32,000 nucleotides of DNA from Massilicoli timonensis (GTDB lineage Bacteria; Bacillota_I; Bacilli_A; Erysipelotrichales; Erysipelotrichaceae): positions 363,272 through 395,271 of the forward strand of contig NZ_LT963434.1 of assembly GCF_900199515.1 (NCBI RefSeq), written 5' to 3'. Of this stretch, positions 1-25,509 are shown one piece after another. The position numbers and the translations under genes are program-made. Below the pieces are notes generated by a model. That model made no database searches. It saw only the letters and a program-made list of their open reading frames with translations, and was not told where the DNA came from. How positions within the stretch are numbered: position 1 is the first letter of the stretch; each line of letters opens with the position of its first letter.

Positions 1-125
1 GCGGAAAAAAGGCCGCATGGCAAAACGGTCGCTTCAATGCCTGCCTGTGTAAATACCGGAAGCTGTGCCGTAATGCCGACATGCGAATGAGCGACCATGC
101 TGTTGATGACCAATACTCGTTTCAT
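1..125 (-). CDS. 5' end of a pyridoxal/pyridoxamine-kinase-like gene (continues off the left edge)
   Basis: Not in the ORF track because it is truncated. The reverse strand from ATG at 125 reads MKRVLVINSMVAHSHVGITAQLPVFTQAGIEATVLPCGLFS, which resembles PdxK/PdxY-type kinase N-termini. An AGGTGA RBS lies upstream. The ATG overlaps the rlmA stop as ATGA. Confidence 0.45.
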   Translation of the reverse strand, partial: MKRVLVINSMVAHSHVGITAQLPVFTQAGIEATVLPCGLFS

Positions 126-916
126 TTTTTCACCTGCTTTCGATAACAGACGATATGAAAGGAAGCGCGCACCTGCAGCACGCTCTGCGCTTGTAAACGC
201 GATCGGCTTTCTTTCGGTGATTTCCAATAGTAAGGCGTCATTTGAAACAGCGCCTGCAAATGCTGTGGATCATGGATCTCCATCGGATAAGTCAGCGTTT
301 CTGCTTTTACAACATCAAATGATCGGCTATGAACAGTCGGCTCATGCAGCTGTACGCGCTCATATAAGATCTGTTTTAATTCATATAAATGATATGGTCC
401 CGGCTGCACCTGAATGAGCAGACCATCTGCTTTCAGCACCCGCTGAAACTCCGCTTCATCAAAAGGGGCAAATACGCTGAGCAAGACATCGACGCTTTCA
501 TCCGCCAAAGGCAAATGCGCCAATGAAGCGATCGCATAATGCGTTTTCGCATCGTTTGCGGCAGCGAGCTTCAAAGCAGCCTTGGATAAATCAAATCCAT
601 ACGCTTCCCTCGCATGCTGCGCACATACCTTGGTATAATAGCCTTCACCACATCCCGCGTCCACCAGTACCTGCGGTTTTCGGGAAGCGATCAAATTGCT
701 TACATGATCGCGCAGCGGGGCATAAAAGCCTTCTTCCAAAAACAAGTGCCGGCTTTTGACCATATCCCGATCATCTCCACTGCTCTTTTTTCCATTGATC
801 ATTAAATTGACATAGCCTTGCCTTGCCAGATCAAAACTGTGCCCGTTTTCACATTTCATTTGTTTCTCTGTTCTTCTCAGCTCTGTTTGACAGATCGGAC
901 ATAGCAGCATCTTCAT
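122..916 (-). CDS. rlmA: 23S rRNA (guanine-N1)-methyltransferase, RlmA family
   Basis: 264 aa. N-terminal Cys4 zinc motif (CPIC...C..GH) followed by the SAM motif VLVDAGCGEGYYT. Collinear by eye with E. coli RlmA (FDLA..GYVNL, MTPYYW). Confidence 0.85.
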   Translation of the reverse strand: MKMLLCPICQTELRRTEKQMKCENGHSFDLARQGYVNLMINGKKSSGDDRDMVKSRHLFLEEGFYAPLRDHVSNLIASRKPQVLVDAGCGEGYYTKVCAQHAREAYGFDLSKAALKLAAANDAKTHYAIASLAHLPLADESVDVLLSVFAPFDEAEFQRVLKADGLLIQVQPGPYHLYELKQILYERVQLHEPTVHSRSFDVVKAETLTYPMEIHDPQHLQALFQMTPYYWKSPKESRSRLQAQSVLQVRASFHIVCYRKQVKK

Positions 917-965
917 CGCCTCCCTGCTCTTTGCCTATCTTATCATAGATTTCTTTGCATTGACA

Positions 966-995
966 GAAAAAAAGCTTCTTCCGCCGGATAAAAGC
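966..995 (-). terminator. Possible intrinsic terminator after the small ORF
   Basis: The minus strand reads GCTTTT..AAGAAGC followed by TTTTTTT. The stem is imperfect, about 6 bp with one G-U pair. Confidence 0.35.
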
Positions 996-1048
996 AAATA
1001 ATCTGCCCTTATGCGTCCAAAGCCTTTTCTCATAGCTGCTTCACTAGG

Positions 1049-1240
1049 TTACTGGTTCGGCTTATGATGATCGATCTGTCGCCGTTTTTCTTCATAGATC
1101 TTGCGATGCTTGATCTTATCCGCTTCCAGATCCGCCCCCAATTCAATGCCCATCTCATACTGAAACAGGTTTTCCTGAATCTGTTTTTCCTGATAGAGCG
1201 GATTATGTGTTTGCCGGTTTTGTCCATTTGTTTTTTTCAT
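1049..1240 (-). CDS. Small hypothetical protein (63 aa)
   Basis: I trimmed the track ORF 1049..1303 to the internal ATG at 1240 (MKKTNGQNRQ...), which has an AGAGGTGA RBS 6-7 nt upstream. The protein is charged and Gln/Lys-rich. I recognise no family. Confidence 0.5.
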   Translation of the reverse strand: MKKTNGQNRQTHNPLYQEKQIQENLFQYEMGIELGADLEADKIKHRKIYEEKRRQIDHHKPNQ

Positions 1241-1287
1241 CTGTTTATCACCTCTGCTCTTAATATGAGCAGAAAGCATCTTCTTAT

Positions 1288-1313
1288 ACAAAAGAAAAGG
1301 CACAAAGGTGCCT
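1288..1313 (-). terminator. Intrinsic terminator downstream of thiI
   Basis: The minus strand reads AGGCAC-CTTT-GTGCCT followed by TTTCTTTT, starting 3 nt after the thiI stop. Confidence 0.6.
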
Positions 1314-1315
1314 CA

Positions 1316-2527
1316 CTAAAATAAATCCGCTTCTTCCAGCTGTTTAGCCGGATAGATCTGTACGACTTTGGTGTTTTCGACACACGCATCGACCAGTTTT
1401 TCCCAATCGAAACGGCTTTCCAGCTTTTCACATTTAACGGCGGTCGGCTTCGTTACCGGATTTTTCGGCGTAAAGATCGTACAGCAGTCCTCAAAAGGCT
1501 GGATACTTGTTTCATAGGTATCGATCTGCTTTGCGATCTCAATGATCTCTAATTTATCCAGTGCCGCTACCGGACGGATCACCGGCATCGTTACCACGGA
1601 ATTGATCACATTCATGCTCTCTAACGTCTGCGAAGCGACCTGCCCGATGCTTTCCCCATTGACGATTGCCAAAGCGTGCTGCTTTTGCGCAAGCTTAGCA
1701 GCGATACGATACATCATGCGCCGCATCAGCGTGATCGCATAGCTTTCATCACCGTGCTCATAAATCGCCAATTGCAGATCGGTAAATGGAACGATATGCA
1801 AGGTGATATGTCCCTGATAATGCGCAAGCAGTCTTGCCAGTTCTTCCACCTTTTCCTGTGCCCTTTGAGAGGTATAAGGCGGTGAAGCATAGTGAATGCA
1901 CTCGATCGCAATGCCTCTTTTCATCGTCAGATAGGCTGCGACCGGTGAATCGATGCCGCCGCTGAGCATGACCATCGCTTTCCCACCGATCCCAACCGGA
2001 TAGCCGCCTGCTCCAAGCATCACATCGGTCATGATGCAGGCAAAGCCTTGATGCACTTCGATCGTGATTTTCAGCTGTGGATTTTTGACATCGACCTTCC
2101 AGCGATCGGTTTTTAAGATATCGCCTGCCACGATGCGGTTGATCTCATCGGAAATATAAGAAAACTGCTTATCGCTGCGCCGCGCCGCTACTTTGAAGGT
2201 TTCCTTGTCGCTGGCATTGGCGATCTGCAGGCATGCGGCACGAATATCCTCAATCGTACTCGGCACCTTCATTGCCAACGAAAAGGAACGGATACCGAAA
2301 ACATGGCGGATCCGCTCACATACCGCCTCATGATCACTTTCATGCAGATGGATATACAAACGATCATGTGTTTTCTCATATTCCAGCCGATCAAACTCCC
2401 ACAGTGCATTGCGCATATTGTGCACGAGCCGATTGATAAAATCCTTGCGGTTTTTGCCTTTGGTCGTCAATTCTCCATAACGAACCAAGATATGGTCATA
2501 AACCGGTTTATTAAGTTCTGTATTCAT
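1316..2527 (-). CDS. thiI: tRNA uracil 4-sulfurtransferase ThiI (no rhodanese domain)
   Basis: 403 aa. N-terminal ferredoxin-like/THUMP region (YGELTTKGKNR) and the PP-loop motif LSGGIDSPVA. It lies next to a cysteine desulfurase, as in the Bacillus nifZ-thiI pair. Confidence 0.9.
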   Translation of the reverse strand: MNTELNKPVYDHILVRYGELTTKGKNRKDFINRLVHNMRNALWEFDRLEYEKTHDRLYIHLHESDHEAVCERIRHVFGIRSFSLAMKVPSTIEDIRAACLQIANASDKETFKVAARRSDKQFSYISDEINRIVAGDILKTDRWKVDVKNPQLKITIEVHQGFACIMTDVMLGAGGYPVGIGGKAMVMLSGGIDSPVAAYLTMKRGIAIECIHYASPPYTSQRAQEKVEELARLLAHYQGHITLHIVPFTDLQLAIYEHGDESYAITLMRRMMYRIAAKLAQKQHALAIVNGESIGQVASQTLESMNVINSVVTMPVIRPVAALDKLEIIEIAKQIDTYETSIQPFEDCCTIFTPKNPVTKPTAVKCEKLESRFDWEKLVDACVENTKVVQIYPAKQLEEADLF

Positions 2528-3638
2528 GATAGATCTCCTTTATCACTTGCAAAAACTGTTCGATTTCCGCTATTGTCGTCAAATGCGACAGCGAGATGCG
2601 GATCGCATGGGTTGCACGCAGCTCGCCAAGTCCCATCGCCGCCAGCACATAAGAATGCGGCTTCCCTTTTGAGGCACAGGTGCTTTGCGCCGATACCGCA
2701 AAGCCGCGCGCATTGAGCGCATTCAACATGATCTCACTGCCGATCTGTTCACAGGATACATTTAAGATATAAACTGATCCGTTTTGCGGTGAGTTGATGA
2801 CAAAGCCCTCCATATTTGAAAATGCCTCATAAAGCATCTCATGCAGCGTTTTCACATAGGCGAAATGCTCCCGCTGATGATCCAGCGCCAAACGAATCGT
2901 CTTGGCCCACATCGTATAAGCCGGTGCATTGCTGGTACCGCCGCGCAAATGCTGTTCCTGCTGCCCGGCGCTGATCAAAGCGATGATCGGCAGATGCTCA
3001 CGTTTATAAAGCAGGCCGCACCCTTTTAATCCGTAAATCTTATGGGCGGACATCGTCGCCATATCGACATCCTGCAACGGCAACTCATATTTTCCCAATG
3101 CCTGCACACAATCACAATGAAACACCGCCTTCGTATGCGTATGAACGTAGGCAGCCAGTTCCTTGATCGGATTGATCGCACCGGTTTCATTGTTGATATA
3201 CATGCAGGAAACCAGTATCGTATCTTCCCTTACCGCCGCTGCTAAATCACTTAACCGTACCACTCCATCCTCGCTGACCGGCAGATAAGTGATCGAAAAT
3301 CCAAACACTTCTTCCAGCTGTTTCATCGTTTCCAGTACGCTGGAATGCTCCACCGCCGTCGTGATCAAATGTTTTCCTTTATGTGCATTGGCAAACGCAT
3401 AGCCTTTGATCGCCATATTATTCGATTCACTGGCACACGAAGTAAAAAAGATCTCGGTTTCCTTTACACATAAAGAAGAAGCCACTTGCATGCGGCTTTG
3501 CTTCATTAACCGATCGGCTTTTCTGCCGATCTCATGCAGGGAATCGCTGTTCCCATAATACTGCTTCAAAACTTTGTAATAACCCTCTAACACTTCTTCA
3601 TGCAGAGGCGTTGTTGCAGCATAATCCAGATAAATCAT
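2511..3638 (-). CDS. Cysteine desulfurase (class V aminotransferase, NifZ/IscS-like)
   Basis: 375 aa. Starts MIYLDYAATTP, has the PLP-lysine context SAHKIYG, and ends in a typical C-terminal region. It overlaps thiI by 17 nt. Confidence 0.9.
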   Translation of the reverse strand: MIYLDYAATTPLHEEVLEGYYKVLKQYYGNSDSLHEIGRKADRLMKQSRMQVASSLCVKETEIFFTSCASESNNMAIKGYAFANAHKGKHLITTAVEHSSVLETMKQLEEVFGFSITYLPVSEDGVVRLSDLAAAVREDTILVSCMYINNETGAINPIKELAAYVHTHTKAVFHCDCVQALGKYELPLQDVDMATMSAHKIYGLKGCGLLYKREHLPIIALISAGQQEQHLRGGTSNAPAYTMWAKTIRLALDHQREHFAYVKTLHEMLYEAFSNMEGFVINSPQNGSVYILNVSCEQIGSEIMLNALNARGFAVSAQSTCASKGKPHSYVLAAMGLGELRATHAIRISLSHLTTIAEIEQFLQVIKEIYHEYRT

Positions 3639-3653
3639 CTTTCATCACCTTTT

Positions 3654-5408
3654 CTATTCCTCTAATGTGACTGGCGTTTCACTTTGACGGTTTATCAGTT
3701 TTTCATAAGCACCCGGATGGATCTTTTCGATCGCCTGAATGCTGATTTTCAATGCTTTCGTATATTCGCCGTTTCTAAAGCATAATTCCGCTCTGGTTAA
3801 TTCCGAGTCGATCTCCGGATACGTAGAACGATATTTATTGCCGAAAACGATTGCATTTTCCACCATCTTCGCCATCCCTACCAGTTTATTCACACTGTTG
3901 TAAAGGGTATAGACGAAATCAATGGTCGAACGCAGCTGCACGTTAAGATTTTTCACATCAAGCGGGATAGAATCCAAAATACAGCGTACATCGTTCATCA
4001 TTCGCTTTGCCTTCGCCAGATTCTGATCAAACTGTGCATCCACGACCGGTAAGCGGTGCCGCGTCATCTTGACTTGGATCTCATTCAGGATCAACTGCAT
4101 CTTGATCAGCTGTTTCTTCGCCCGTTCTTCATCGCTGCACGCATTCTCCAGCTTTCCTTTTAAGGAAGCGACCTCTTCATGAAAAGCGTGTACGCTCGTA
4201 TCTAATTCCTGTAATGAGAGCAGGATCGTCGTATAAGGAACGCCCGCTTCTTCCAGCACTTCCTCCAGTTTTCCTCTGGTACGATTGATCTCCGTCAGTT
4301 TCTCCTTGATTTCTTCTAAACGCTGCGCCCAGTTCTCAAAGCCAAAGCGCGAAGATACCCGCTCATACAGCTGATCGATCGTTTCGATATCGCGATTGAC
4401 CTCACGAATTTCCTCGAATAACATCTGTTTGTCGCTTTGCACCTGCCGATACGCATTTGCTTCTTTGGTGATCTGCTCTTGGATCTGCACCAGCCGCCGC
4501 TGGCTTTCATTCAGATGCTCCTGTACGCTTTCTAAATTGCCGCAGCGAAGCTGATTCAGATCATCCTTCAGCATATCGGTAACGATCTCCAGGTTTTTCT
4601 TCACTTCCAAATGTTCCAGATAAACGCCCTGATTTTTTGCTTGGGCATAATTATAGTTTACTTCATCGATCGCTCTTGGCAATACGCCCTTAGCGATTTC
4701 ATAGAGCTTCGGCAGCTGATTCTTCAGCGCTTCCAAGTGCGCGATGGATTTTGCGATCTCTTCCTGCTGCTCGCCTGCTTTGGTAAATTCAGAAGCGAAC
4801 ATCCATTCCTCAAACAAAGAGAACATCTTTTCGATCGACAGCACTTCATTTTCCATGTACTCGCTGCTTTGATGGAAAGCGCCGTGGTTTTCCGTAATGA
4901 CCTTTTTCAGATTGCGAAACTGCTCCTTCAGCACATTGATCTGTTCACGCTGCGCATTTTCCTGCTCCAAGACGCCGTCCAGCAATTCATTGACCCGCTG
5001 CACATTGATTTCACAGCCATCTAACAGCGCGCTCAACTCTTCCATGCGTCTGCTTGCCGCCTTGATCTTGCGCACGTATAAAAAGTCATCGCTTTCCGCT
5101 AGAGCGATCGAACACTGCTTTAACTGCTCCTGTACTTCGTCAAAATCATTCTTACAGGCGTCCACCCGTTCCGCCATCATCGTATTCACTCTTGACAAAG
5201 CCACCGCTTTATTCACCTTAAAAGCCAACGGCACGCCTTTTAACGTATGATAACGCTGTTCCAGTTCTTCCAGCTGCCGCTTCGCTTTTTTGCTGCGAAT
5301 CATCATCATGATCAAAGTAATGACAATGATCGCTGCCAAACCGATCCCGATATATAAAAACGCATCTGCTGATACCAGCTGCTTTACTTTCCCGATAAAA
5401 CTGTTCAT
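3654..5408 (-). CDS. ezrA: Septation ring formation regulator EzrA
   Basis: 584 aa. A single N-terminal TM helix is followed by long coiled-coil repeats. Length and layout match EzrA, and the thiI/desulfurase/rpsD neighbourhood is typical of Bacilli-type genomes. Confidence 0.85.
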   Translation of the reverse strand: MNSFIGKVKQLVSADAFLYIGIGLAAIIVITLIMMMIRSKKAKRQLEELEQRYHTLKGVPLAFKVNKAVALSRVNTMMAERVDACKNDFDEVQEQLKQCSIALAESDDFLYVRKIKAASRRMEELSALLDGCEINVQRVNELLDGVLEQENAQREQINVLKEQFRNLKKVITENHGAFHQSSEYMENEVLSIEKMFSLFEEWMFASEFTKAGEQQEEIAKSIAHLEALKNQLPKLYEIAKGVLPRAIDEVNYNYAQAKNQGVYLEHLEVKKNLEIVTDMLKDDLNQLRCGNLESVQEHLNESQRRLVQIQEQITKEANAYRQVQSDKQMLFEEIREVNRDIETIDQLYERVSSRFGFENWAQRLEEIKEKLTEINRTRGKLEEVLEEAGVPYTTILLSLQELDTSVHAFHEEVASLKGKLENACSDEERAKKQLIKMQLILNEIQVKMTRHRLPVVDAQFDQNLAKAKRMMNDVRCILDSIPLDVKNLNVQLRSTIDFVYTLYNSVNKLVGMAKMVENAIVFGNKYRSTYPEIDSELTRAELCFRNGEYTKALKISIQAIEKIHPGAYEKLINRQSETPVTLEE

Positions 5409-5428
5409 AACGACACCTCACTGTTCTA

Positions 5429-5437
5429 ATTGTACCA
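5429..5437 (-). promoter_or_regulatory. Candidate extended -10 promoter element for ezrA
   Basis: The minus strand reads TGGTACAAT (TGn + TACAAT) about 20 nt upstream of the ezrA RBS GAGGTG. There is no good -35 element. Confidence 0.3.
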
Positions 5438-5474
5438 TAAAAACGGCGCCTGCACTACTACTCATCGCCGTTTT
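5438..5474 (-). terminator. Intrinsic terminator after the 5458..5847 ORF
   Basis: Perfect 9-bp inverted repeat AAAACGGCG / CGCCGTTTT (5440..5448 and 5466..5474). The minus-strand stem is followed by a T-run. The loop is long (17 nt), and one arm lies in the last codons of the ORF. Confidence 0.5.
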
Positions 5475-5847
5475 CCGTTAATTTTTTCAGCGTGGCAACC
5501 ACCTGTTTCAAAAAAGCGTCATATTCGATAAACTGATAGCCGTCTTTTTCCGCTACTGCCACATAATAGCGATCCTTGCTGTCATAGATGACCTGGTATT
5601 CCTCATCCTTCAGCAAAATACAGGCAATGCCGATCTTAACGCTTGTCAAATTGCCCTGCACCATGACGTGATGATAGCCGTATTCCGTACTCACATAGAT
5701 CGTATCATCGTACAGATCGCTTTTATAAGCGCCGCTTTCCACTCCATGCAAATATAGATCGCTTTTGACATAGACCGGCACCTGATCAGGAAACTGCTGC
5801 CGGGCACTGATCAAAACTGCCTCTTCCTCAAATTCACCGATTTTCAC
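5458..5847 (-). CDS. Hypothetical protein (129 aa)
   Basis: I trimmed the track ORF 5458..5904 to the GTG at 5847 (V/MKIGEFEEE...), which is preceded by GAGGAAG with 7-nt spacing. I recognise no family. Confidence 0.55.
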   Translation of the reverse strand: MKIGEFEEEAVLISARQQFPDQVPVYVKSDLYLHGVESGAYKSDLYDDTIYVSTEYGYHHVMVQGNLTSVKIGIACILLKDEEYQVIYDSKDRYYVAVAEKDGYQFIEYDAFLKQVVATLKKLTENGDE

Positions 5848-6022
5848 TTCATCACTTCCTCGTCTTTTGTTACTGATTATACCACAGGAAAGACGACAAT
5901 GCACGGCGTTCTTTCCAGAATGCTTTACGCCTGCACTGTCAAAAGGACTACATTTTTCTCAAAACGATCCAAAGATGCGCTGTCTTTGCCTGTTTTTTTC
6001 TGCATTTCATCGATATTTTATT

Positions 6023-6051
6023 TGACTTTCCGTCAGGCATTTGTTAAGATA
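6023..6051 (+). promoter_or_regulatory. Sigma-A-type promoter for rpsD
   Basis: TTGACT (6023..6028), a 17-nt spacer ending in TGT (extended -10), then TAAGAT (6046..6051). Confidence 0.5.
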
Positions 6052-6233
6052 ATGAAGCGTCAAATGATAGCAGCATGTAAAGTCGTGCAGTTTCGCGTTG
6101 TTCACACAGTGATTTGTGGGGCATCGGGTAACTTTGCTGTAAGAGCGAGGATGTCGTATGGAGCAACACCCTGCATGGATGATTTACACCTGTTATTGTT
6201 TATCGTCAAAATAAACAATAAGGAGGACACATT
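6052..6233 (+). promoter_or_regulatory. rpsD 5' leader with an SD-proximal hairpin (candidate S4 autoregulatory element)
   Basis: The untranslated leader is about 180 nt. A perfect 11-bp stem, TTATTGTTTAT (6193..6203) / ATAAACAATAA (6211..6221), runs into the AAGGAGG Shine-Dalgarno sequence. Confidence 0.45.
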
Positions 6234-6836
6234 ATGTCAAGAATGAACGGACCTGTCTGGAAAGTTTCTCGCCGTCTGGGATTCTCGATCTTGGAAACCG
6301 GTGAAGAACTGCAAAGACGCCAGTACGCACCAGGTCAGCACGGACCTACAAAACGTGTAAAATTAACAAACTATGGTTTACAGTTACGTGAAAAACAGAG
6401 AATCCGCAACATGTACCAGGTAAATGAACGCCAGTTCTACAACACTTTCAAGAAAGCATCTAAAAAGGAAGGTGTTACCGGCCACAATTTCTTATTCATG
6501 CTGGAATCTCGTTTGGATAACTTAGTTTACCGCATGGGATTTGCCCGCACACGCCGCGCTGCTCGTCAGCTGGTCAATCACGGACATATTCTGGTAAACG
6601 GCAAGAAGGTGGACATCCCTTCCGCACAGATCAAATTAGGTTCTGTGATCGAAGTGAAAGAAAAGTCAAAGAACATGACCGCCATCAATGAAGCATTAGA
6701 AGCAACATTGAATACACCGGCTTTCGTAACCGTTGATAAGGATGCGAAAAAAGGTACTTATGTACGTCTGCCGGAACGCAGCGAGCTGAATCAGGAAATC
6801 AACGAGCTGCTGGTAGTAGAATTTTACAACCGCTAG
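6234..6836 (+). CDS. rpsD: 30S ribosomal protein S4
   Basis: 200 aa with canonical S4 sequence (YGLQLREKQ, the S4 RNA-binding domain [21 protein letters not shown]). A strong AAGGAGG RBS is present. Confidence 0.95.
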
Positions 6837-6850
6837 TAAACCGAAGAAAA

Positions 6851-6874
6851 ATCGCATAATTATGCGGTTTTTTT
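6851..6874 (+). terminator. rpsD intrinsic terminator
   Basis: ATCGCAT-AATT-ATGCGGT stem-loop followed by T7. Confidence 0.75.
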
Positions 6875-6971
6875 ATAGTTTCATTCTCCTTATATGTGAG
6901 ATATGTGTGAGATATAAGCAAAAAAAATGCTATTTTTAGTCATGATTGATATAAACATTTTCTCACACACA

Positions 6972-7006
6972 ATAAAAAATCCCCCACTCCTTTATTGGAA
7001 TGGGGG
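6972..7006 (-). terminator. Intrinsic terminator after the endolysin gene (end of the late operon)
   Basis: CCCCCACTCC-TTTATT-GGAATGGGGG hairpin (6981..7006). On the minus strand it is followed by ATTTTTTATT. Confidence 0.65.
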
Positions 7007-7012
7007 TATTTC

Positions 7013-8071
7013 TTAATATGTTAAGTTATTGATATTGAATGCAGTGTTTAGACCATCGCCTAATACGATACGATTGCCTTTTACTTCAATTACCGTATAT
7101 GATTTTGATGTAACGCTGGAAAGCAGACTTACTCCATCATATGATACTGCCTTAATCGGTTTTGCTTTCATTCCTACTTTAAGTGTTTTTGTTTCAGTAA
7201 CAAGCATTAAGTCTGAAACATGGAAAGCTGTATTCAAGCCATTACCTAAAACTGCTCTATCGCCTTTTAATTCAATAACAGGATAGTTGTTTTTAGTAAC
7301 GCTCGCCAATAGGCTCACACCGTCATAAGACACTGCTTTAGTCGGACGGACGCTCGAACCGACTGCAATTTTGTTTTCAGTAGGTTTATTTTCTACTGAA
7401 TCTTGCGCTGTTCCGTACACATAATCTTTACTCCATGTTTGTAACCAGCCTTGATCTGTACTCGCATCAAGTCCTTCTGACGGAATGCCTTGAATACCTT
7501 TCAATGCGCCATTTTTAGCAAGAGATGTAAACTGGTGCAACAGCACATTTCCAAATGGATTATACTGCAACTTACCGCCCCAGTTATCTTGACCGTTATT
7601 GCTTCCATAATTTGCAAGCCACAAGGTCCATGCCTTGAAACCGTCTGCTGTTAATTTAGTACGGAACCAGTTTTCATTCGCATAGATTCCGACTGGAATG
7701 CCTGCTGCTTCAATCTCATCACAGAACGCTTTAGCAATCTCATATGCCTTTTCAGCGGTTAAATTGCCCTGAAAAGCACTGTATTCCATATCATAATATA
7801 ATACTCGCACTTTGTATCCTTTGATTGCAGATAAAGCCATTCGCGCCTCTGCTTTTGCTTCAGCTGCGTTTCGTGCATATGCGAAATGGTATGCACCTAA
7901 TGGAATGCCTAATTCATTTGCCTGTTTCGCATTGTTCGTCCATTGCTTATCAATCTGCTTTGTGTTATCCCATCCGTAAGAGCAACGAGCAATTACACCT
8001 GCAATGCTCTTTTTTGCTGCCGATAAATCTACTTTACCCTGATGCTCTGAAATATCAATAATAATACTCAT
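7013..8071 (-). CDS. Endolysin: N-terminal GH25 muramidase plus two C-terminal wall-binding repeats
   Basis: 352 aa. The N-terminus (IIDISEHQG..., GAYHFAYA) is GH25-like. Residues 235-291 and 297-352 are an approximately 55-aa tandem repeat (KAVSYDGVSLL.SVT...Y.VIE.KG.R.VLG.GLNTAF). AGGAGG RBS. Confidence 0.9.
   Translation of the reverse strand: MSIIIDISEHQGKVDLSAAKKSIAGVIARCSYGWDNTKQIDKQWTNNAKQANELGIPLGAYHFAYARNAAEAKAEARMALSAIKGYKVRVLYYDMEYSAFQGNLTAEKAYEIAKAFCDEIEAAGIPVGIYANENWFRTKLTADGFKAWTLWLANYGSNNGQDNWGGKLQYNPFGNVLLHQFTSLAKNGALKGIQGIPSEGLDASTDQGWLQTWSKDYVYGTAQDSVENKPTENKIAVGSSVRPTKAVSYDGVSLLASVTKNNYPVIELKGDRAVLGNGLNTAFHVSDLMLVTETKTLKVGMKAKPIKAVSYDGVSLLSSVTSKSYTVIEVKGNRIVLGDGLNTAFNINNLTY
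7016..7369 (-). repeat. Tandem duplication encoding the two endolysin wall-binding modules
   Basis: 7016..7183 and 7199..7369 encode near-identical peptide repeats. The similarity is also visible at the DNA level. Confidence 0.8.
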
Positions 8072-8387: not shown

Positions 8388-8669
8388 TTATTCTCCTACA
8401 TGATTACAGTTTTTTGCTGGTTCAGTATAATTAAGTGCTCGTTCACTATCTGCCACACCCTCTGTATTTGGATCAACCACAATACCTAAGATTGCCAATA
8501 CAGCGAATAAAGCATTTACAACTGCTAATAACTTATTTCCTAAATCGCCAAGATCAAGTGTATAGCCAAATACCGCTGCTACAACCTGAACTAACAATAA
8601 AGTAGCAGGAATTAAGGCTACCCAAAATGCTTTGTTTTTAATACGTGTTTCCCAGTTAATGTTTTTCAT
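8388..8669 (-). CDS. Holin (phiLC3/LL-H-like)
   Basis: 93 aa with two or three TM segments (FWVALIPATLLLVQVVAAVFG; LLAVVNALFAVLAILGIVV) and a charged C-terminus. It lies immediately upstream of the endolysin region. Confidence 0.75.
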   Translation of the reverse strand: MKNINWETRIKNKAFWVALIPATLLLVQVVAAVFGYTLDLGDLGNKLLAVVNALFAVLAILGIVVDPNTEGVADSERALNYTEPAKNCNHVGE

Positions 8670-18358: not shown

Positions 18359-19546
18359 TTACGATCCTTTAACGATCGTTGCATTACCTGCTGCTACTGC
18401 AAATGCACCTTTTGTCGTATTGATAAGCGCTACTGTTGCGTTTGTTTGACTATCAACAGTTACCGTGCCGTTTGCTGGCAGATCTTTCCAACTGGATAAA
18501 TCCTGACCGTATGTTACAGATGGATCTGCACTGTTCAATTGATATACCAGTTTTTGACCTAAGAACGGTTTAACATCTACTGATAATACAGTTTCATTTG
18601 CAGTCCCTGCGACTGATGTAACATTTAATGTACCCAAAACAGGCTCACTGATATTTGCTAAAACACCGCAACGACGTTTATTCAATGCAAATACATCGTA
18701 ATAATAACGTTCATAGTACAGCCATTTACCTTTGGTTTGTGCAGTAGGAGCGCTGATCATTGACGTTTCATACACGATTGGAGCAATAATCGCCATCGGA
18801 TCAACTAACAGCAGATTGATCTGCTTAGCAGACGTATCAACATTCCATCCATTTGTGAAATCATAAATCGTTTTCATCATGTCGGACGGCACTTCTTTAA
18901 TGACAACACCGTCTAATTTTCCGACATTGCGATCAACATTGCGAATACCTGTTCCAGCGTCAATGAAACGAGTGATGCCAGCTGCTTCCTTCAATAATTT
19001 ATAGATATCAGGTGTCATGTACGCAACCAGACGATCTCGATTGATTCGCTGATTTACCATATATGCCAAATAACCGTCCCAAGTTGATAAGATATTATCT
19101 TTATCAAGTACAGTAGCATCAGCAGTACCAAAAGTTTGCGCAAAATTCGCCAAATGAGATGCAACATAGACATCCATCTCCGGTACTTTTTCAAATTCAT
19201 TGAAAGTCTTCGTGATATTTGCGATAGTAACAACTTGATTGGATTCTTGAATATCCATTGGATCAACAAGTGTATCCCACTCACGATCCATTTCCATCGT
19301 AACAGGCTGATATTCGTTATTAAAATTGCGATTGAAAGTACCATCAATGCTATCACGGTTAACAACACGTGCTCCGCTGGTCGTCATTGACGGAATCATA
19401 ACTGTCTTGCCGTTTACCGGTTTATATTTCTGACTATTAGGACCAGCCCAAATCTCACTAAAATAACTCAAATACGGATAAGCGTTTGCAAGTTCTCTTG
19501 CATAGTCAACTGCATAATTAAGTGGTGTTTGATTAAAGTTTTGCAT
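18359..19546 (-). CDS. Major capsid protein with a C-terminal Ig-like extension
   Basis: 395 aa, immediately after the scaffold gene. GAGGAG RBS. The last approximately 95 aa are Thr/Val/Asn-rich and look like beta-strand sequence. Confidence 0.8.
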   Translation of the reverse strand: MQNFNQTPLNYAVDYARELANAYPYLSYFSEIWAGPNSQKYKPVNGKTVMIPSMTTSGARVVNRDSIDGTFNRNFNNEYQPVTMEMDREWDTLVDPMDIQESNQVVTIANITKTFNEFEKVPEMDVYVASHLANFAQTFGTADATVLDKDNILSTWDGYLAYMVNQRINRDRLVAYMTPDIYKLLKEAAGITRFIDAGTGIRNVDRNVGKLDGVVIKEVPSDMMKTIYDFTNGWNVDTSAKQINLLLVDPMAIIAPIVYETSMISAPTAQTKGKWLYYERYYYDVFALNKRRCGVLANISEPVLGTLNVTSVAGTANETVLSVDVKPFLGQKLVYQLNSADPSVTYGQDLSSWKDLPANGTVTVDSQTNATVALINTTKGAFAVAAGNATIVKGS

Positions 19547-19560
19547 TTTATTTCACTCCT

Positions 19561-20049
19561 CTACTTTTTCGGTACAAAGCCCCAAATTTCACCAAAAGAC
19601 TGTTTTTCATTGCCTTGTGGCATCGATCCTTTTGTTCCACTTCCAAACTGCGGCTTTGTTTCTTCTTCGACGTTAAACATATCTGCATATTCTTCTTTGA
19701 AAGATGAAAGTTGCTCATCAATATCTTTTTCTGAATCTAATTTTCCGATGAGCATTTCTGCATACTTCTCATTTTTAACGCCTCTGTCCGTCAGATTACG
19801 AATCTGTTCCTTGCGCTCATATTCTGCGATTTTAGACTCCATGTCTTTCCATTCTTGCGATTCTTTGTAATCATTCGGTTTTCCTTTCATCGCCTCATCA
19901 ATTGCATCTTTTTTTATCTGCTCAATATCGCTTTTTGAAACGTAATCATTAAATGATGCACCGTATAAAGCCATGATCTGTTCGAGTTTATCGTCTAACT
20001 CGCCGTCTTTTTGTAAGATGTTTCTTACTGTTTTTCTTGTTAATGCCAT
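19561..20049 (-). CDS. Scaffolding protein
   Basis: 162 aa, highly charged and helical (KE-rich), upstream of the capsid gene. AAGGAGA RBS. Confidence 0.7.
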   Translation of the reverse strand: MALTRKTVRNILQKDGELDDKLEQIMALYGASFNDYVSKSDIEQIKKDAIDEAMKGKPNDYKESQEWKDMESKIAEYERKEQIRNLTDRGVKNEKYAEMLIGKLDSEKDIDEQLSSFKEEYADMFNVEEETKPQFGSGTKGSMPQGNEKQSFGEIWGFVPKK

Positions 20050-20107
20050 AATCGAAATCTCCTTTTCATTGGTCTGCCTTGTTTTTACGCTTCAAGACGT
20101 CAGCGCA

Positions 20108-20132
20108 TATAAAAAGCATGATTTCTCATGCT
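20108..20132 (-). terminator. Intrinsic terminator after the Dps-like gene
   Basis: The minus strand reads AGCATGA-GAAA-TCATGCT followed by TTTTAT, 12 nt after the stop. Confidence 0.6.
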
Positions 20133-20143
20133 AATTACCTATT

Positions 20144-20596
20144 TCAATCATCTTCTTCAATGATGTTTGGTCTAGCAGCAGACTCTCCTAGATAATGCTG
20201 CATTTTGTAATCTGCTTCTTTGCGCAGATAAAAAATATATTCATCAAGTTTATTTTGAATATCGACTGGCGTATCTTCTTTTACCACTGTCGCTTTTTCA
20301 ACTACCATAATAAAATCGTCATAAGCAAGTTTTATACTTTCATTACATTCTCTAACTTCTACCGGAAGAAGATTGTTTGAATATAATAAAATAGCATCTT
20401 TGATAGAAGGCTCAGAATGTCCCAAAGGTATGCCACGTTCAATTAAGTCGTCGAGCATATCTCCGATATATTTATACCACTCTTCTAATTGCGGATGAAT
20501 CGTAAAAAAACCATGCCCTACAACGTTATGATGCAACACTCCTAGGTTTTGATAAACAACTTTCAAAAATGCAGTTAACTCTTCATAATGATTCAT
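20144..20596 (-). CDS. Dps-like ferritin-fold protein
   Basis: 150 aa. LHHNVVGHGFFTIHPQLEEWY....LDDLIER..PLG aligns by eye with the Dps/MrgA core ([20 protein letters not shown]....VDTIAERLLAIG). The C-terminal ..YLG motif is also present. Confidence 0.7.
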   Translation of the reverse strand: MNHYEELTAFLKVVYQNLGVLHHNVVGHGFFTIHPQLEEWYKYIGDMLDDLIERGIPLGHSEPSIKDAILLYSNNLLPVEVRECNESIKLAYDDFIMVVEKATVVKEDTPVDIQNKLDEYIFYLRKEADYKMQHYLGESAARPNIIEEDD

Positions 20597-20742
20597 TTTG
20601 ATCCCTCCTTTCTAGATTTATCTTGCTTTTCTTTATTTTTACTTTTCATGATTTTCACATATTCATCTTGTGTCAAATGAAAACCACATAATAGACATGT
20701 TACTCCATCTGCATGTCCTTGAAACTGATGTTTACATTTCAT
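20593..20742 (-). CDS. Small zinc-ribbon-like basic protein (49 aa)
   Basis: I trimmed the track ORF to the ATG at 20742 (MKCKHQFQGHADGVTCLLCG...), which is preceded by AAAGGAGA. It has a CxH-x9-CxxC pattern and a Lys-rich tail. Its stop overlaps the Dps-like start (ATGA). Confidence 0.5.
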   Translation of the reverse strand: MKCKHQFQGHADGVTCLLCGFHLTQDEYVKIMKSKNKEKQDKSRKEGSK

Positions 20743-20756
20743 TATTGTTCTCCTTT

Positions 20757-20782
20757 CAAAATAAAAAGCGCCAAACAGCGCT
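20757..20782 (-). terminator. Weak terminator-like hairpin between the 68-aa ORF and the Zn-ribbon/Dps cassette
   Basis: The minus strand reads AGCGC-TGTTTG-GCGCT followed by TTTTTATTTT. The stem is only 5 bp, and it starts within the TAG stop of the upstream ORF. Confidence 0.35.
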
Positions 20783-20987
20783 AATTGTTCCAATAAATCT
20801 CATCATATATTTTCTGATACTTTCTACCGGTATCGTTAAATTCCCATCCCGGATCATATCCTTCCTCAAGAATCAGATCATTAAGAGGATCTAAAATATC
20901 ATTAACATCATCAGAATAAATCATCTCCTCAGCGTTTTCAAATTTCTCTCTCAAAAATGCTTTTTGTTCGTCTGTTAACTTTATCAT
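20781..20987 (-). CDS. Very acidic 68-aa protein (candidate immunity/antidote partner of the MuF C-terminal module)
   Basis: 18 D/E against 7 K/R. Its ATG overlaps the MuF stop (ATGA). The functional assignment is inference only. Confidence 0.5.
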   Translation of the reverse strand: MIKLTDEQKAFLREKFENAEEMIYSDDVNDILDPLNDLILEEGYDPGWEFNDTGRKYQKIYDEIYWNN

Positions 20988-22618
20988 TTATTTCTACCTC
21001 CACGCGGATTTGCTTGAATCAAATTACCTGTATCTGGATTGACAGTCACATTACAAAGATTAGAAACATAATTGTGGCTTCTATAACCATTTGATTCTTT
21101 TTCAGTAATTTTATCCGGATTCTCTAATGTTGCGAGCACATCACCAATCGGCACTCCTTTTCTCATACCCTTGATTGGCTCATTACTGCTTTCATACTGC
21201 CCGATTACTCGATCAATAAAATGTGTCTTATATCCTGTTATCATTATACCATCTTTTGTGGTCTTTCCAACAAGATCTTTTTCAACTTTTGTTGCTACTT
21301 GTTTATATATGTCAAGCGTAACAAAACTTGATATATCGCCTTTTTTAACCGCATAATCATATCCTTTTTTTAACGTATAATTTTTTGCAGCCTGATTAGA
21401 TTCACTAAATATATCCTTGTTAAAAGAAATTACACGTTCTCTATCTGTCCTTCTAGTTCTTCCTGTTTCTGCGATAAATAATTTCATTTTTTCCTGCTTG
21501 CGTTTTATTTTAGCAGATGCCTTTGCAAAATCATCGCTGTCTTCCAGTCCGGCTTTTTTTAATGCAACAACTTCTGTTTTTGCTTTTCGGATTTCTCTTT
21601 CAATTGCTCGTTGCCGCTGCGATTCTTGGTAAACTTCATCATTTTCTTCTATTTCTGCTTTTGTTAATGGCTTATTTACTAATGTTGATATCCCGGGAAT
21701 AAACGGTATCGGATTATGCCCGCAGTTGATTCCGAATAACCCCGCAGGCTCGCCGTAACTAGTCGATGATAACGGTTTGAAACGATGCTTTTTCCCAAGT
21801 GCGTCTTTAACCGTTCCACTTCTGCCTGATGTTGAAAATATCTTTCCTTGATATGGCGCACACAAAGGGCGAGCACCAGCATGTTTATCGACTTGAATCA
21901 AATCGTTTCCATAGTCCTCATTCCGCTTTTGAACAACATCGATTGACATATTATGAACATTAGTACGACAGTACATATTTGCATATGCTTCTGCACTCCA
22001 TTTCCTGCCCGCTCGATCAATATATCCAGACACATTTTCATCAATCATCTGTCGTATTGCCTCTGCAACAGCACTTTGTCTTGCTTTTCCTTCATATGTT
22101 TTTCTAACGGCTTCATCAAGTATTGAGTAACGTGGATCATTCATCTTATTTCGGAAGTTCCTAATGACATTTGAAATTGCACGGCTAAACGATTGAACGA
22201 CATCTTCTTTCATAACTGCATTCATCGTCGAAAATGTTTGCTTAAATTCCTGCGATTTCATCTTTTTTAATAGAGATATAGCCTTGCTTCCAGCATAAGC
22301 CTCAGTAGCAATCAATACACCATTTTCAGCAGCTTTTTTTAATTTTGGCTCTACCTCTTCTAATGATTCATCTACAGTATCATTTAGCGCTTTTCGGATC
22401 GTTGCTGAATATGGATATTCAGACTGAATGCTTTTCACATCTTTCAATAATCTTGAAATTAGTTGCACCATTTCTTTCTGCCACACATCAATAGGTTTAT
22501 CGATATCTTTTCCGATGTATTCCGCCATTTGTATCATAATCTGATTTGCCATGCTTCCATACATCGCTTCAAATGGCTCTGCTATTTCTAATATATCATT
22601 TCTAGTGATAACTGCCAC
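20984..22618 (-). CDS. MuF / SPP1 gp7-like head morphogenesis protein with an extra C-terminal module
   Basis: 544 aa. GTG start with a GGTGAGGA RBS, overlapping the portal stop by 1 nt. The MuF core is at about aa 185-305 (RAGRKWS..Y......T, PLCAPYQGKIFS, NCGH). A coiled-coil region follows, then about 150 further residues ending in THFIDRVIG...GVPIGDVLATLENPDKI...VTVNPDTGNLIQANP. Confidence 0.85.
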   Translation of the reverse strand: MAVITRNDILEIAEPFEAMYGSMANQIMIQMAEYIGKDIDKPIDVWQKEMVQLISRLLKDVKSIQSEYPYSATIRKALNDTVDESLEEVEPKLKKAAENGVLIATEAYAGSKAISLLKKMKSQEFKQTFSTMNAVMKEDVVQSFSRAISNVIRNFRNKMNDPRYSILDEAVRKTYEGKARQSAVAEAIRQMIDENVSGYIDRAGRKWSAEAYANMYCRTNVHNMSIDVVQKRNEDYGNDLIQVDKHAGARPLCAPYQGKIFSTSGRSGTVKDALGKKHRFKPLSSTSYGEPAGLFGINCGHNPIPFIPGISTLVNKPLTKAEIEENDEVYQESQRQRAIEREIRKAKTEVVALKKAGLEDSDDFAKASAKIKRKQEKMKLFIAETGRTRRTDRERVISFNKDIFSESNQAAKNYTLKKGYDYAVKKGDISSFVTLDIYKQVATKVEKDLVGKTTKDGIMITGYKTHFIDRVIGQYESSNEPIKGMRKGVPIGDVLATLENPDKITEKESNGYRSHNYVSNLCNVTVNPDTGNLIQANPRGGRNK

Positions 22619-24237
22619 TATTCCTCACCGCCAAGCAAAAACTCATCTACTGCATCAGCATTCACTCCGCTTTCTTCTTTAATTCGGTTAAGTTCTTGAT
22701 TTGCTTCTTCATCTGTCATTCCTAACTTTTTCGTCATGAATGTTCGCTTTGACATAACGCCATTTGACATTAACATAATACCTTCGTTAATGTCTGTTTG
22801 ACGGTCTTGCAGAATAGAATCATCAAACACCACTTTCACACTGTAATTTTTAGCAATGCTGGAAATCGGAACACCGTTCCATTTAACATCATAGAGGGCT
22901 GCCACATTGATGATCCCGTGAACGATCTGTTCAATCGCGTTTTTCACTTGCATCTGATTAGCACGTACAGTCTTATATGTTTTTGAATTTTCACTAATGA
23001 TTTCAGTAGCAGTTTTCAATCCATGCGACTGATCGAATGTGAATGTTCCTGCACTGAATCCTAATTGCAGACACAGCATATTCAGAAAAGCATTGATCGC
23101 GCTGATATGTTCATCAATACGCAGTTCAATAGAGTTATCTTGAATTTTGAGTTGCTCTGTATCGTCTGTCGATAACGCAACATAAGCTTCGTCATTCGCG
23201 TCAAAATATCTAACTGTTCTTTTCGTAATTGGATCATGCACTGTTCGTAATGCACTTGTTGGCACAATAATCCTCTTTTTGCCCAACACAAATTCACGAA
23301 TAAATGAATCATAGCAAATATCTAGTGCATGTAATGTAGCAAACGCATTTGCATAAACAGATACACCTAGCGGCGAGTTATCGTCAATGTTATTTGCGAT
23401 AGCGGTTCTATAATAAGCAAAAAGGCTTTCTGTGATTCCATTGATTTCAGTACTTGGATTCAAAAACGGATAAATTTCTGCAAGCGGATATCGAAATCCC
23501 AAAATATCCTGCGGCTCCATTAAACCGTCATTGCCGATGACATCTCGCTTTTCGGCTCTAAATGCTTCATTTTCAATATAATAGGTCAGTCCATTCCATC
23601 GATGCCATTCTAATCGAGTATAATAATAGCCATCCTTCGCTTGTCTGCTGATGAACACTCCTTCTGTTACCTTTGCGTTATCCCAAGCAGTAGGGACAAA
23701 CTGATCTGCCATACAATATCCAATCATAATTTGCCCAGCACCGGGAATCACGTTTCCATTACCGTCGCGCCTTTCTTCATACCAGACTTTTAGAGCGCCA
23801 CCACCTAAAGCCATGCTTTGCTCGATATGTTCTTGCATTTTTGTCCAAAACGCATTTTTAGAAAGAACATCTTGAACGAAGTCATCCAGCGGATCTGTCT
23901 TTCCATCGTTTAACTCTTTCTCTGACGAAACGTGCACTTCGCACTGTTCGTTCCAAATAAGCCCCGCTAATTCAGCACAAACCGCTTTTTCAATGTTAAG
24001 CGGCTCTACTTTCCTCATATTGTTCGGATTGTCAACTGTCGGTGCCTTTACATAATGCCACGGTTTATAGAATCCCCTATATAGATACTTCCAAATAAAT
24101 ATCCCAAAATAATAGAATTGATTAAACGAAGGTACTCCGTTTATTTCGAATATATCTTTGAATTGTTTTGCAATCCCTAAATCTGCACCAGTTCTCTGCA
24201 TGAAATTTCTCACCGTCCTTTTAATTTTTTCAAACAC
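22618..24237 (-). CDS. Portal protein (SPP1 gp6-like)
   Basis: 539 aa with a GTG start preceded by AAGGAGGTG. It lies between terL and the MuF gene, the canonical position. Confidence 0.8.
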   Translation of the reverse strand: MFEKIKRTVRNFMQRTGADLGIAKQFKDIFEINGVPSFNQFYYFGIFIWKYLYRGFYKPWHYVKAPTVDNPNNMRKVEPLNIEKAVCAELAGLIWNEQCEVHVSSEKELNDGKTDPLDDFVQDVLSKNAFWTKMQEHIEQSMALGGGALKVWYEERRDGNGNVIPGAGQIMIGYCMADQFVPTAWDNAKVTEGVFISRQAKDGYYYTRLEWHRWNGLTYYIENEAFRAEKRDVIGNDGLMEPQDILGFRYPLAEIYPFLNPSTEINGITESLFAYYRTAIANNIDDNSPLGVSVYANAFATLHALDICYDSFIREFVLGKKRIIVPTSALRTVHDPITKRTVRYFDANDEAYVALSTDDTEQLKIQDNSIELRIDEHISAINAFLNMLCLQLGFSAGTFTFDQSHGLKTATEIISENSKTYKTVRANQMQVKNAIEQIVHGIINVAALYDVKWNGVPISSIAKNYSVKVVFDDSILQDRQTDINEGIMLMSNGVMSKRTFMTKKLGMTDEEANQELNRIKEESGVNADAVDEFLLGGEE

Positions 24238-24249
24238 GATTGCACCTCC

Positions 24250-25509
24250 TTAAAGCACGTATCTTTTGTAAAAATAGTTATTTGCATAACGCGCTTCATC
24301 CATTGCATGATTATACGCATCTATCGGTCTACCGTTATCGTCGACACAATACATACCGATTTCTCTTAAAAAGTCATCACACCCAAAACGATCGTCATTC
24401 ACAACAAAAAAGCGCCCATCAGATATAGCGCTCTGTAAATATTCAATTCCAACCTCAATTCCCTTGCGATTTCCTTTAACGTCCTTACCGTTGTTATCGG
24501 CTTTATCTGTCTCAATTCCCAGCAATCGCAATTCCATTCGTAAGGCTTTACACGCTGGATCGATCTTCCAGCATGACTCCAACATCTTAAATTTATGTCT
24601 ACAATAAGGAACGAAATCACGTACTATTTCTTTGGCTTGGGTGCTCATTGCTTTGTTTGATCCATCATAATACCAGTTAGCAGCACGAATCACTATATAT
24701 TTACTCTCTACCATTCCAATAAGATTACAGCTGATTGATGTCGCATCCGTCAACCCTCCATCTCCTGAAAAAAACATTTCAAATGGTACAAAGTCAAAAG
24801 GTAATTTATCTAATATATGGATTTGTTCATCAAACATCGAATAAATAACTCCTTGTGGAATTGTTCTTTCTCCTAGCCAATCACGTTTATATAGGTACGG
24901 ATTCTTGATAAGTGTATCATGAAGTTCCTGTTTTCTTTCGGTGCTTAAAATCGGGTTATCATCAACGGTCCAGTGTGTCCAGTTTGTGTTTTGAACATTA
25001 AAGACATCGCTAATGACTGGATGAAGCGGAGCTGGTGGGTTGAGATCAGCAATATGCCATCTAATGTCTGCTGCGTACGTTCGGCGAAAACATTCTTGTA
25101 TCATATTCATGTGTAGAATATCTATTTCACAAAAGTACGCACTTCCTAATGACAGACCTCTGATGCTCTTATCAGAATCAGCCTTGGCTCCACCCTTGTA
25201 ATATACTTTCTTCATGCCTTTTGCGGTTTGGCATTCCAAATGGTCGCCATGATCATCATGTTTAATAACCGCTTTATTACCGAATAAATGAAGCAGTCCA
25301 TTCCCATCACAGTCAATGACTAATCTAAACGCCTGCTGTTGTGATGCTCCTACTACTAAATGATTTACATCATTTGATATATTCAAAAATAGAAAATATC
25401 TTGCAATACATGCTGTGGTCTTTCCACTTCGTGGCGTTCCTTCCGCTACATCTAAAGTGTGATTGAATTTCATTGTAATAAACCTCTGCTGCTTATCCGA
25501 TAACTTCAT
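24250..25509 (-). CDS. Terminase large subunit
   Basis: 419 aa with the Walker A motif GTPRSGKT near the N-terminus and acidic nuclease residues towards the C-terminus. ATGA coupling to terS. Confidence 0.9.
   Translation of the reverse strand: MKLSDKQQRFITMKFNHTLDVAEGTPRSGKTTACIARYFLFLNISNDVNHLVVGASQQQAFRLVIDCDGNGLLHLFGNKAVIKHDDHGDHLECQTAKGMKKVYYKGGAKADSDKSIRGLSLGSAYFCEIDILHMNMIQECFRRTYAADIRWHIADLNPPAPLHPVISDVFNVQNTNWTHWTVDDNPILSTERKQELHDTLIKNPYLYKRDWLGERTIPQGVIYSMFDEQIHILDKLPFDFVPFEMFFSGDGGLTDATSISCNLIGMVESKYIVIRAANWYYDGSNKAMSTQAKEIVRDFVPYCRHKFKMLESCWKIDPACKALRMELRLLGIETDKADNNGKDVKGNRKGIEVGIEYLQSAISDGRFFVVNDDRFGCDDFLREIGMYCVDDNGRPIDAYNHAMDEARYANNYFYKRYVL

Follow-up and report, generated by a model that had tools for sequence, protein, structure and literature searches.

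The 32,000-nucleotide stretch of the Massilicoli timonensis genome under study (contig NZ_LT963434.1, positions 363,272 to 395,271; here called the window) contains a prophage that encodes, within its head-morphogenesis module, a small protein of the Dps family of mini-ferritins together with an overlapping zinc-ribbon-type gene. The assignment of the 150-residue product to a divergent branch of the Dps family, with a complete set of ferroxidase ligands, is well supported, and the comparison of related loci indicates that both genes are old residents of the slot between the gene for the MuF-type minor head protein and that for the head scaffolding protein, where they are usually linked and are separable. 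As to function, our tentative account is that of a mini-ferritin made late in the phage cycle, which may limit iron and peroxide damage during DNA packaging in an anaerobic host. The two genes had been pointed out in an earlier reading of the same DNA (the original prediction) and are indeed present as it described them, encoding 49 and 150 residues between the MuF unit and the scaffold gene:

20593..20742, minus strand: zinc-ribbon gene, 49 residues, start MKCKHQFQGHADGVTCLLCG, its stop overlapping the start of the Dps gene (ATGA)
20144..20596, minus strand: Dps-family gene, 150 residues

The Dps-family protein and its zinc-ribbon companion

The assignment rests on sequence matches in the PDB, on the register and invariance of the metal ligands, on the reach of the family profile to cellular Dps and on the structural matches of the predicted model. 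A phmmer search of the PDB returned 46 matches, about 45 of them being Dps/NAP chains with H. pylori NAP at the top (E=3e-7), and PHROG 3636, annotated as 'DNA binding protein', matches the protein at 1.5e-8. In the phmmer alignment H22, H34, E38, D49 and E53 are in register with L. innocua Dps at a constant offset of 9, their counterparts being H31, H43, D47 (auxiliary), D58 and E62, which form the inter-subunit ferroxidase site (numbering of 1QGH). When 71 diverse representatives are aligned, H22, H34, D49 and E53 emerge as the sole invariant columns. An exhaustive profile search collected 575 family representatives, clustered at 50% identity, at E≤1e-3, and the family profile also reaches cellular Dps, such as Leptotrichia Dps at E∼1e-21. 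The AlphaFold2 (AF2) model has helices at residues 3–24, 35–53, 65–71, 84–106 and 111–135, corresponding to four long helices and a short BC helix, and its 50 best PDB structure matches are all Dps, with template modelling (TM) scores of 0.6–0.75 over about 145 columns. The gene is under purifying selection, as inferred from a nonsynonymous to synonymous ratio (omega) of 0.08–0.2 where synonymous divergence (dS) is unsaturated. The resemblance to Dps/MrgA with retained ferroxidase positions, which the original prediction had noted by eye, is thus borne out by the PDB match, by the ligand register and by the model.

Some observations weigh against this assignment. The Pfam profile PF00210 (Ferritin) itself remains below threshold, scoring 18.6 bits against a gathering cut-off of 24.5 (E=0.0019), and the protein is placed in the family through the PDB phmmer search and the family profile; the AF2 model is of moderate confidence (predicted local distance difference test, pLDDT, 63.6; predicted TM score, pTM, 0.64); and the tryptophan which stands beside the first histidine of canonical Dps is replaced by histidine in the window protein and mostly by arginine in its family. 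Among the 71 representatives, PF00210 is matched by 26 and the overlapping DUF5856 by 32.

The comparison with bacterial Dps proteins (L. innocua Dps/Fri, H. pylori NAP, B. subtilis MrgA and S. suis Dpr) evidences a common length of about 150 residues, a common four-helix bundle with a BC helix, and equally spaced His, His, Asp and Glu ferroxidase ligands. In contrast to these, the window protein, only 18–25% identical to them over its full length and below the Pfam gathering score, belongs to a branch that has His, Tyr or Arg in place of the tryptophan, a distinctive EYxYxLRKEAxYK motif in helix D and a conserved acidic C-terminal tail, and it comes from a phage gene, situated in a head module and overlapping that of a zinc ribbon. 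The tail, ending in ...IIEEDD in the window protein, keeps the pattern [IV][DE][DE]DD behind a variable linker; the model shows it as disordered.

The protein as a whole is acidic, with an isoelectric point (pI) of 4.70 and 13 Lys+Arg against 28 Asp+Glu residues; the pI of its relatives lies between 4.5 and 5.0, and a basic tail is absent. Because of this acidity DNA binding is not supported, and both a DNA-binding Dps of the E. coli kind and the 'DNA-binding' shell protein of the original prediction were rejected. The Dps of Listeria is likewise acidic and does not bind DNA. The window protein resembles Dps proteins of this non-binding type, among them one from A. tumefaciens whose PDB entry is so titled.

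The companion gene has an AGGAG ribosome-binding site 8 nt ahead of its ATG. The ATGA shared by its stop and the Dps start recurs in every pair examined and is an arrangement permitting translational coupling, in agreement with the coupling proposed earlier. A mechanical list of open reading frames (ORFs) and database entry P0267 give a 66-residue, TTG-start version of the gene; the 49-residue version is taken as correct because the homologues all begin M-x-C-K-H. Its motif is CxH-x10-CxxCG: the CxH and CxxC pairs are present as originally described, the spacer being of ten residues and not nine. Across 36 homologous clusters, all of them small and unannotated, C3, H5, C16, C19 and G20 are invariant or nearly so, and the omega values of 0.26–0.44, where dS is unsaturated, again denote purifying selection. 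The predicted structure consists of three short strands, a helix and a disordered charged tail, with pLDDT of 80–90 at residues 1–30. No significant family match was obtained for the protein with hidden Markov models (HMMs) or Foldseek, the best local matches being zinc ribbons at E>1. A Cys3His zinc-ribbon-type mini-protein, putatively metal-binding, is a reasonable label for it. We also considered the basic tail of the zinc ribbon as a DNA-binding adaptor for Dps, and rejected it since the tail charge varies (pI 5.2–9.9) and the genes are separable. In one relative, L064, a second zinc-ribbon-like mini-gene (..YCCDYCGK..YRCKACKHD..) follows the Dps-like gene at ∼4700-4830, ahead of the terminator region of the scaffold.

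Phage-borne Dps genes are already known, as illustrated by orf120 of the Lactobacillus phage LP65, by genes of 'Gratiaviridae' and other gut phages (Benler 2021) and by PHROG 3636 and 858, and for such genes a protection of anaerobic or microaerophilic hosts from oxidative stress has been proposed. LP65 orf120 differs from the window gene in being a host-like Dps located among accessory genes on the opposite strand. Unlike the phage Dps described earlier, the present branch is, in this phage group, syntenic with MuF and scaffold genes, and it is without a match among 50,697 cultured phage genomes, which were searched by blastn and tblastn with the locus and by tblastn with the window protein and two other members (P0042 and P0009); therefore, there is no annotated close relative to lean on. 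What is new is the divergent branch itself, its fixed place in the head module, its overlapping zinc-ribbon partner and its recurring links to MuF proteins and prohead proteases.

Synteny of the slot between the MuF and scaffold genes

We have gathered 31 loci from contigs with close homologues and from scans of viral and genome collections, the genome-collection matches being Traorella and Merdibacter, both gut Erysipelotrichaceae; a metagenome scan with a sub-alignment returned three loci. The order portal, MuF, none or one small ORF, zinc ribbon, Dps, none to two ORFs, scaffold and major capsid protein is kept in 27 of the 31 (L001-L027, about seven sequence types). The pair is also found in L050 and L054, whose portal and MuF proteins are 58–60% and 31–35% identical to those of the window, and in the MuF-to-scaffold slot of L064; in these three loci the MuF or Dps proteins are just 31–45% identical to the window's. 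The two genes can also occur apart, as the distant locus L029 has a Dps gene without zinc ribbon and L065 a zinc ribbon without Dps, in both cases between MuF and scaffold, and in L066 the zinc-ribbon gene is located after the capsid gene. None of the 27 close loci lacks the pair at this exact position, which leaves no presence/absence polymorphism among them. A recent mobile insertion, or an inserted cargo unit as the original prediction had it, is thus rejected because the same slot is occupied in these 27 and in L050, L054 and L064; likewise, it is untrue of this phage group that related layouts go straight from MuF to scaffold. Members of the Dps-like family are also encoded on contigs of 214–288 kb, as well as on contigs whose portal is T4-type or whose prohead protease is of the T4 gp21 type.

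The genes that frame the pair in the window are the following:

20984..22618, minus strand: MuF-type minor head protein, 544 residues, Phage_min_cap2 at residues 9-382
20781..20987, minus strand: orf68, 68 residues, overlapping the MuF stop
19561..20049, minus strand: head scaffolding protein (PF06810 at 5.4e-12, phrog_194), the downstream edge of the slot

The part of the site that does vary is another one. The MuF C-terminal extension, of about 160 residues beyond Phage_min_cap2, is found together with orf68 and a weak hairpin (20781-21450) in the window and in L008 only, and the sole orf68 homologue (82% identical) is that of L008; this extension and orf68 together are the variable unit of the site. 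Neither has a family match in Pfam, NCBIfam, PHROG or PDB. Since a long MuF with a small ORF downstream is the architecture of MuF polymorphic toxins (PMC5576092), and from this architecture alone, it is possible that the extension is a toxin and orf68 a candidate immunity gene. In L001-L004 the slot also holds a 93-residue ORF, a MazG-like ORF and Sequestin (PF21825), which experiments have shown to act as a 3'cADPR sponge against Thoeris (bioRxiv 10.1101/2025.07.12.664507); the 91-residue ORF of L002 matches MazG-like nucleotide pyrophosphohydrolase PHROGs. Judged from this gene content, the MuF-to-scaffold slot is an accessory and counter-defence hotspot. The extra slot genes (Sequestin and the 91–97-residue ORF) are located at:

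L001: 6465-6710
L002: 6462-6994
L003: 6192-6742
L004: 6462-6994

In the Merdibacter locus L008 the portal, MuF, orf68, scaffold and capsid proteins are 78–87% identical to those of the window and the zinc ribbon 70%, while the Dps-like protein (5001-5453) is only 47% identical. This contrast with the neighbours suggests that recombination has replaced only the Dps gene with another allele. A separate observation concerns the capsid gene, whose match is shifted to ∼7372-8214 in L014, L016 and L021 and split in L054 (7084-7467 and 8303-9166): the break or displacement, of about 1.2 kb, looks like the effect of an inserted element, for instance an intron or a homing endonuclease.

Concerning the overall layout, the prophage abuts host genes and has all of its genes on the minus strand, these being, in descending order, replication genes, a TerS-like helix-turn-helix gene, TerL, portal, MuF, orf68, zinc ribbon, Dps, scaffold and major capsid protein. 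The G+C content passes from about 0.47 in the host part to 0.33–0.41 in the phage part, the fall (∼0.47 to ∼0.40) being near 6 kb, and the end of the prophage lies in the interval 6836-7013, which has rpsD on one side and the GH25 endolysin gene on the other.

1-6836: host genes (rlmA-like methyltransferase, thiI, class-V aminotransferase of the cysteine-desulfurase-like kind, ezrA, rpsD)
6234-6836, plus strand: rpsD
7013-8071, minus strand: GH25 endolysin
8388-8669, minus strand: holin
18359-19546, minus strand: major capsid protein
22618-24237, minus strand: SPP1-type portal
24250-25509, minus strand: TerL

Hairpins and promoter signals around the pair

The following hairpins are found around the pair:

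20757..20782, minus strand: upstream weak terminator-like hairpin, between orf68 and the zinc-ribbon gene
20108..20132, minus strand: downstream terminator-like hairpin with T-run, after the Dps gene
20074..20106, minus strand: conserved hairpin (GCGCU/AGCGU stem, ACGUCU loop) followed by AAAA...GGC, upstream of the scaffold gene

The two terminator-like hairpins which had been described as bracketing the pair do exist. The consensus scan locates the upstream one as AGCGCT-GTTT-GGCGCT followed by a T-run at 20782..20767 (folding z-score −1.8), and the downstream one as AGCATGA-GAAA-TCATGCT followed by T5 at 20132..20115 (folding z-score −2.2). However, their bracketing of the pair does not hold in the relatives. 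The upstream hairpin is shared with L008 only, where it goes along with the long MuF and orf68, and in L001, L006, L007 and L009 the zinc-ribbon gene directly follows the preceding gene with no hairpin between. The post-Dps hairpin is kept in L001-L009 and L029, with stem sequences that differ yet stay complementary, and it always stands just before the scaffold gene, whether after Dps, after Sequestin (L001-L003) or after another ORF. Because it is kept ahead of the scaffold whichever gene precedes, this terminator separates the packaging genes from those for scaffold and capsid, as part of the scaffold upstream region. The notion that the terminators delimit a mobile cassette was rejected, since the downstream one tracks the scaffold upstream region in relatives.

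Regarding promoters, the consensus scan detected no sigma-70-like site ahead of the cassette, in agreement with the earlier failure to find a sigma-A promoter there, and the region has 13 promoter-like sites against 18.8 expected. A TTGACA-17-AATCAT site is located within the zinc-ribbon gene (20676..20648); it was rejected as a promoter, being a product of non-conserved codons.

Next to the downstream terminator, and before the scaffold ribosome-binding site, the relatives have one to three tandem copies of the ACGUCU hairpin, with variable stems, an (A/C)CGUC(U/G) loop and a (U)UAAA..GGC trailer. The stems covary: in 13 units, 80% of the cells are paired, compared to at most 51% when the partners are slid, and the double-change cells amount to 10 against 3.5 expected; none of 500 shuffles reaches the observed value. 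The hairpin persists in phages with merely 35–50% protein identity, and a search of Rfam with the window and four related loci gave no match. It could be a regulatory or processing element in the 5' untranslated region of the scaffold and capsid mRNA. In relatives it is located at:

L001: ∼6745-6830
L006: ∼6160-6235
L009: ∼5500-5580
L029: ∼5500-5575
L064: ∼4940-4985

Proposed role and alternatives

The explanation we consider best, to which we would give a little less than an even chance, is that the pair provides a late-expressed mini-ferritin. The 150-residue product, a divergent Dps of phage lineage, would assemble into a 12-subunit shell with complete inter-subunit ferroxidase centres, which would oxidise Fe2+ using H2O2 or O2 and store Fe3+; the resulting decrease in Fenton damage would benefit phage DNA under replication or packaging in a strictly anaerobic gut host (Erysipelotrichaceae). 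As the protein is acidic, its action would be directed at iron and peroxide and would involve no DNA coating. Both genes, which occupy the accessory slot that closes the terminase-portal-MuF string on its 3' side, would be made late in the lytic cycle alongside packaging and head proteins, since the pair has no promoter of its own; their overlap and their location on the same strand as the adjoining late genes are in line with late co-expression, and the Dps relatives on contigs of 214–288 kb or with T4-type head genes point to the lytic cycle. The zinc-ribbon protein is a separable companion within head modules. According to a proposal of Benler et al. (2021; PMC8008677), the DPS enzymes of gut phages make anaerobic hosts better able to tolerate oxidative conditions while they are infected, and we adopt this mechanism as the most likely one for the window Dps, a protection of replicating and packaging DNA being suggested by co-expression with the packaging machinery. 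Two sets of observations weigh against so simple an account: the recurrent adjacency to head genes and the fusions to prohead proteases hint at more than a cytoplasmic antioxidant, and the conserved acidic tail and the coupled zinc ribbon are not accounted for by an antioxidant model.

These same features raise the possibility, which we regard as unlikely though deserving serious attention, that the Dps-like protein, maybe with the zinc ribbon, is recruited to the procapsid or virion via MuF, portal or scaffold, where it would guard the packaged genome against oxidation from inside or help in assembly or ejection, its acidic tail serving as a docking peptide. The tail pattern conserved behind a variable linker and the fixed position between MuF, a head-internal protein, and scaffold, maintained down to 31–35% MuF identity, argue for such a role, as do unrelated lineages in which the gene ahead of a Dps-like one encodes either a MuF/head-morphogenesis protein from a different family (L056, L057) or a structural protein of the virion (L052). 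In P0114, a prohead protease of the T4 gp21 type and a Dps-like domain with an acidic tail are joined in one protein, and three further 'Prohead protease' entries with a Dps fold exist in BFVD. Moreover, Dps-domain proteins of the Kuravirus-type C3 podophages were detected by mass spectrometry in purified virions, that of SU10 (CDS67) with 6 peptides and 35.8% coverage (PMC4281155) and that of Privateer likewise (PMC7881722), which sets a precedent for phage Dps proteins accompanying particles. However, these share with the window protein a Dps fold (structural TM 0.68, 18% identity) and no tblastn-level similarity, and belong to another branch; the branch of the window has no cultured-phage tblastn match for the three members searched, and the SU10 and Privateer genes lie among middle genes of virulent Gram-negative podophages. 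A stable 12-mer might also merely co-purify with virions, and a 9-nm dodecamer would be unable to exit through the tail. Non-structural contexts are seen for L058, L059, L067 and LP65 orf120, and the post-MuF slot is also a permissive accessory site, as Sequestin and the MazG-like gene in relatives indicate. The broader claim, that Dps-like mini-ferritins keep recurring as partners of MuF proteins and prohead proteases and form a physical part of phage heads, is, in our judgement, rather unlikely to hold. If true, they would be virion-internal iron and peroxide guards or assembly factors, with the acidic tail and, in this lineage, the zinc ribbon as docking devices, and a phage counterpart of encapsulins with ferritin-like cargo. 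Indeed, in encapsulin systems the gene of a ferritin-superfamily iron oxidase likewise lies beside an HK97-fold shell gene and assembly factors, and the cargo has a conserved flexible C-terminal tail as the window protein does. However, the tail of the latter is acidic, unlike cargo-loading peptides, and EncFtn and Flp are other ferritin-like subfamilies; the comparison is an analogy only.

A lysogenic-conversion gene, or moron, expressed in the repressed prophage and shielding the host from oxidative or iron stress, would fit the terminator-like hairpins on both sides of the pair in the window and around the Dps-only gene of L029, the slightly lower G+C content at 20-21 kb (0.333 against ∼0.37) and the non-conserved TTGACA-17-AATCAT site inside the zinc-ribbon gene. 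The sequence evidence does not favour this role, which we consider improbable: no promoter stands ahead of the pair and promoter-like sites are not above chance, most relatives lack the upstream hairpin, the downstream terminator is part of the scaffold upstream region, the pair is not polymorphic for presence/absence, and the family occurs on the 214–288 kb contigs and on those with T4-type head genes. Equally doubtful is a role in counter-defence or host takeover, be it by sequestration of metals or small molecules, by acidic-tail decoys or as a two-part rubrerythrin-like peroxidase with the zinc ribbon. Sequestin and the MazG-like ORF share the same slot in L001-L004, and rubrerythrin has a rubredoxin domain of which the overlapping Cys3His mini-protein is reminiscent. 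However, it is precisely the iron ligands that are invariant, an indication of ordinary Dps chemistry, and no defence-related literature on phage Dps was found. The rubrerythrin-like pairing was itself set aside, as the ribbon ligands are Cys3His and not Cys4, no match to rubredoxin or another family was obtained, and each gene occurs alone (L029, L065, L066). Little could be learned from the gene neighbourhoods of three large fusion proteins, P0058, P0119 and P0046.

One of these proteins, the 481-residue acidic P0058 of L061 (7001-9036), has an internal Dps-like domain and is encoded two genes upstream of a 56-residue 4Fe-4S ferredoxin; the portal of this contig is T4-type, and P0058 and the ferredoxin are another pairing of phage iron proteins.

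The comparison of loci also argues against the tempting view of the zinc ribbon and Dps genes as a moron. Phage-borne Dps had earlier been noted only as scattered auxiliary genes, whereas here, in a group of siphophages of gut Erysipelotrichaceae, a divergent branch is a stable, vertically inherited part of the head-morphogenesis module. If the protein is just a late antioxidant, it would be a tidy case of phages handling the chemistry of iron and peroxide inside anaerobes; should the heads turn out to carry it, it would represent a new class of virion-internal protein, parallel to the encapsulin-ferritin compartments.

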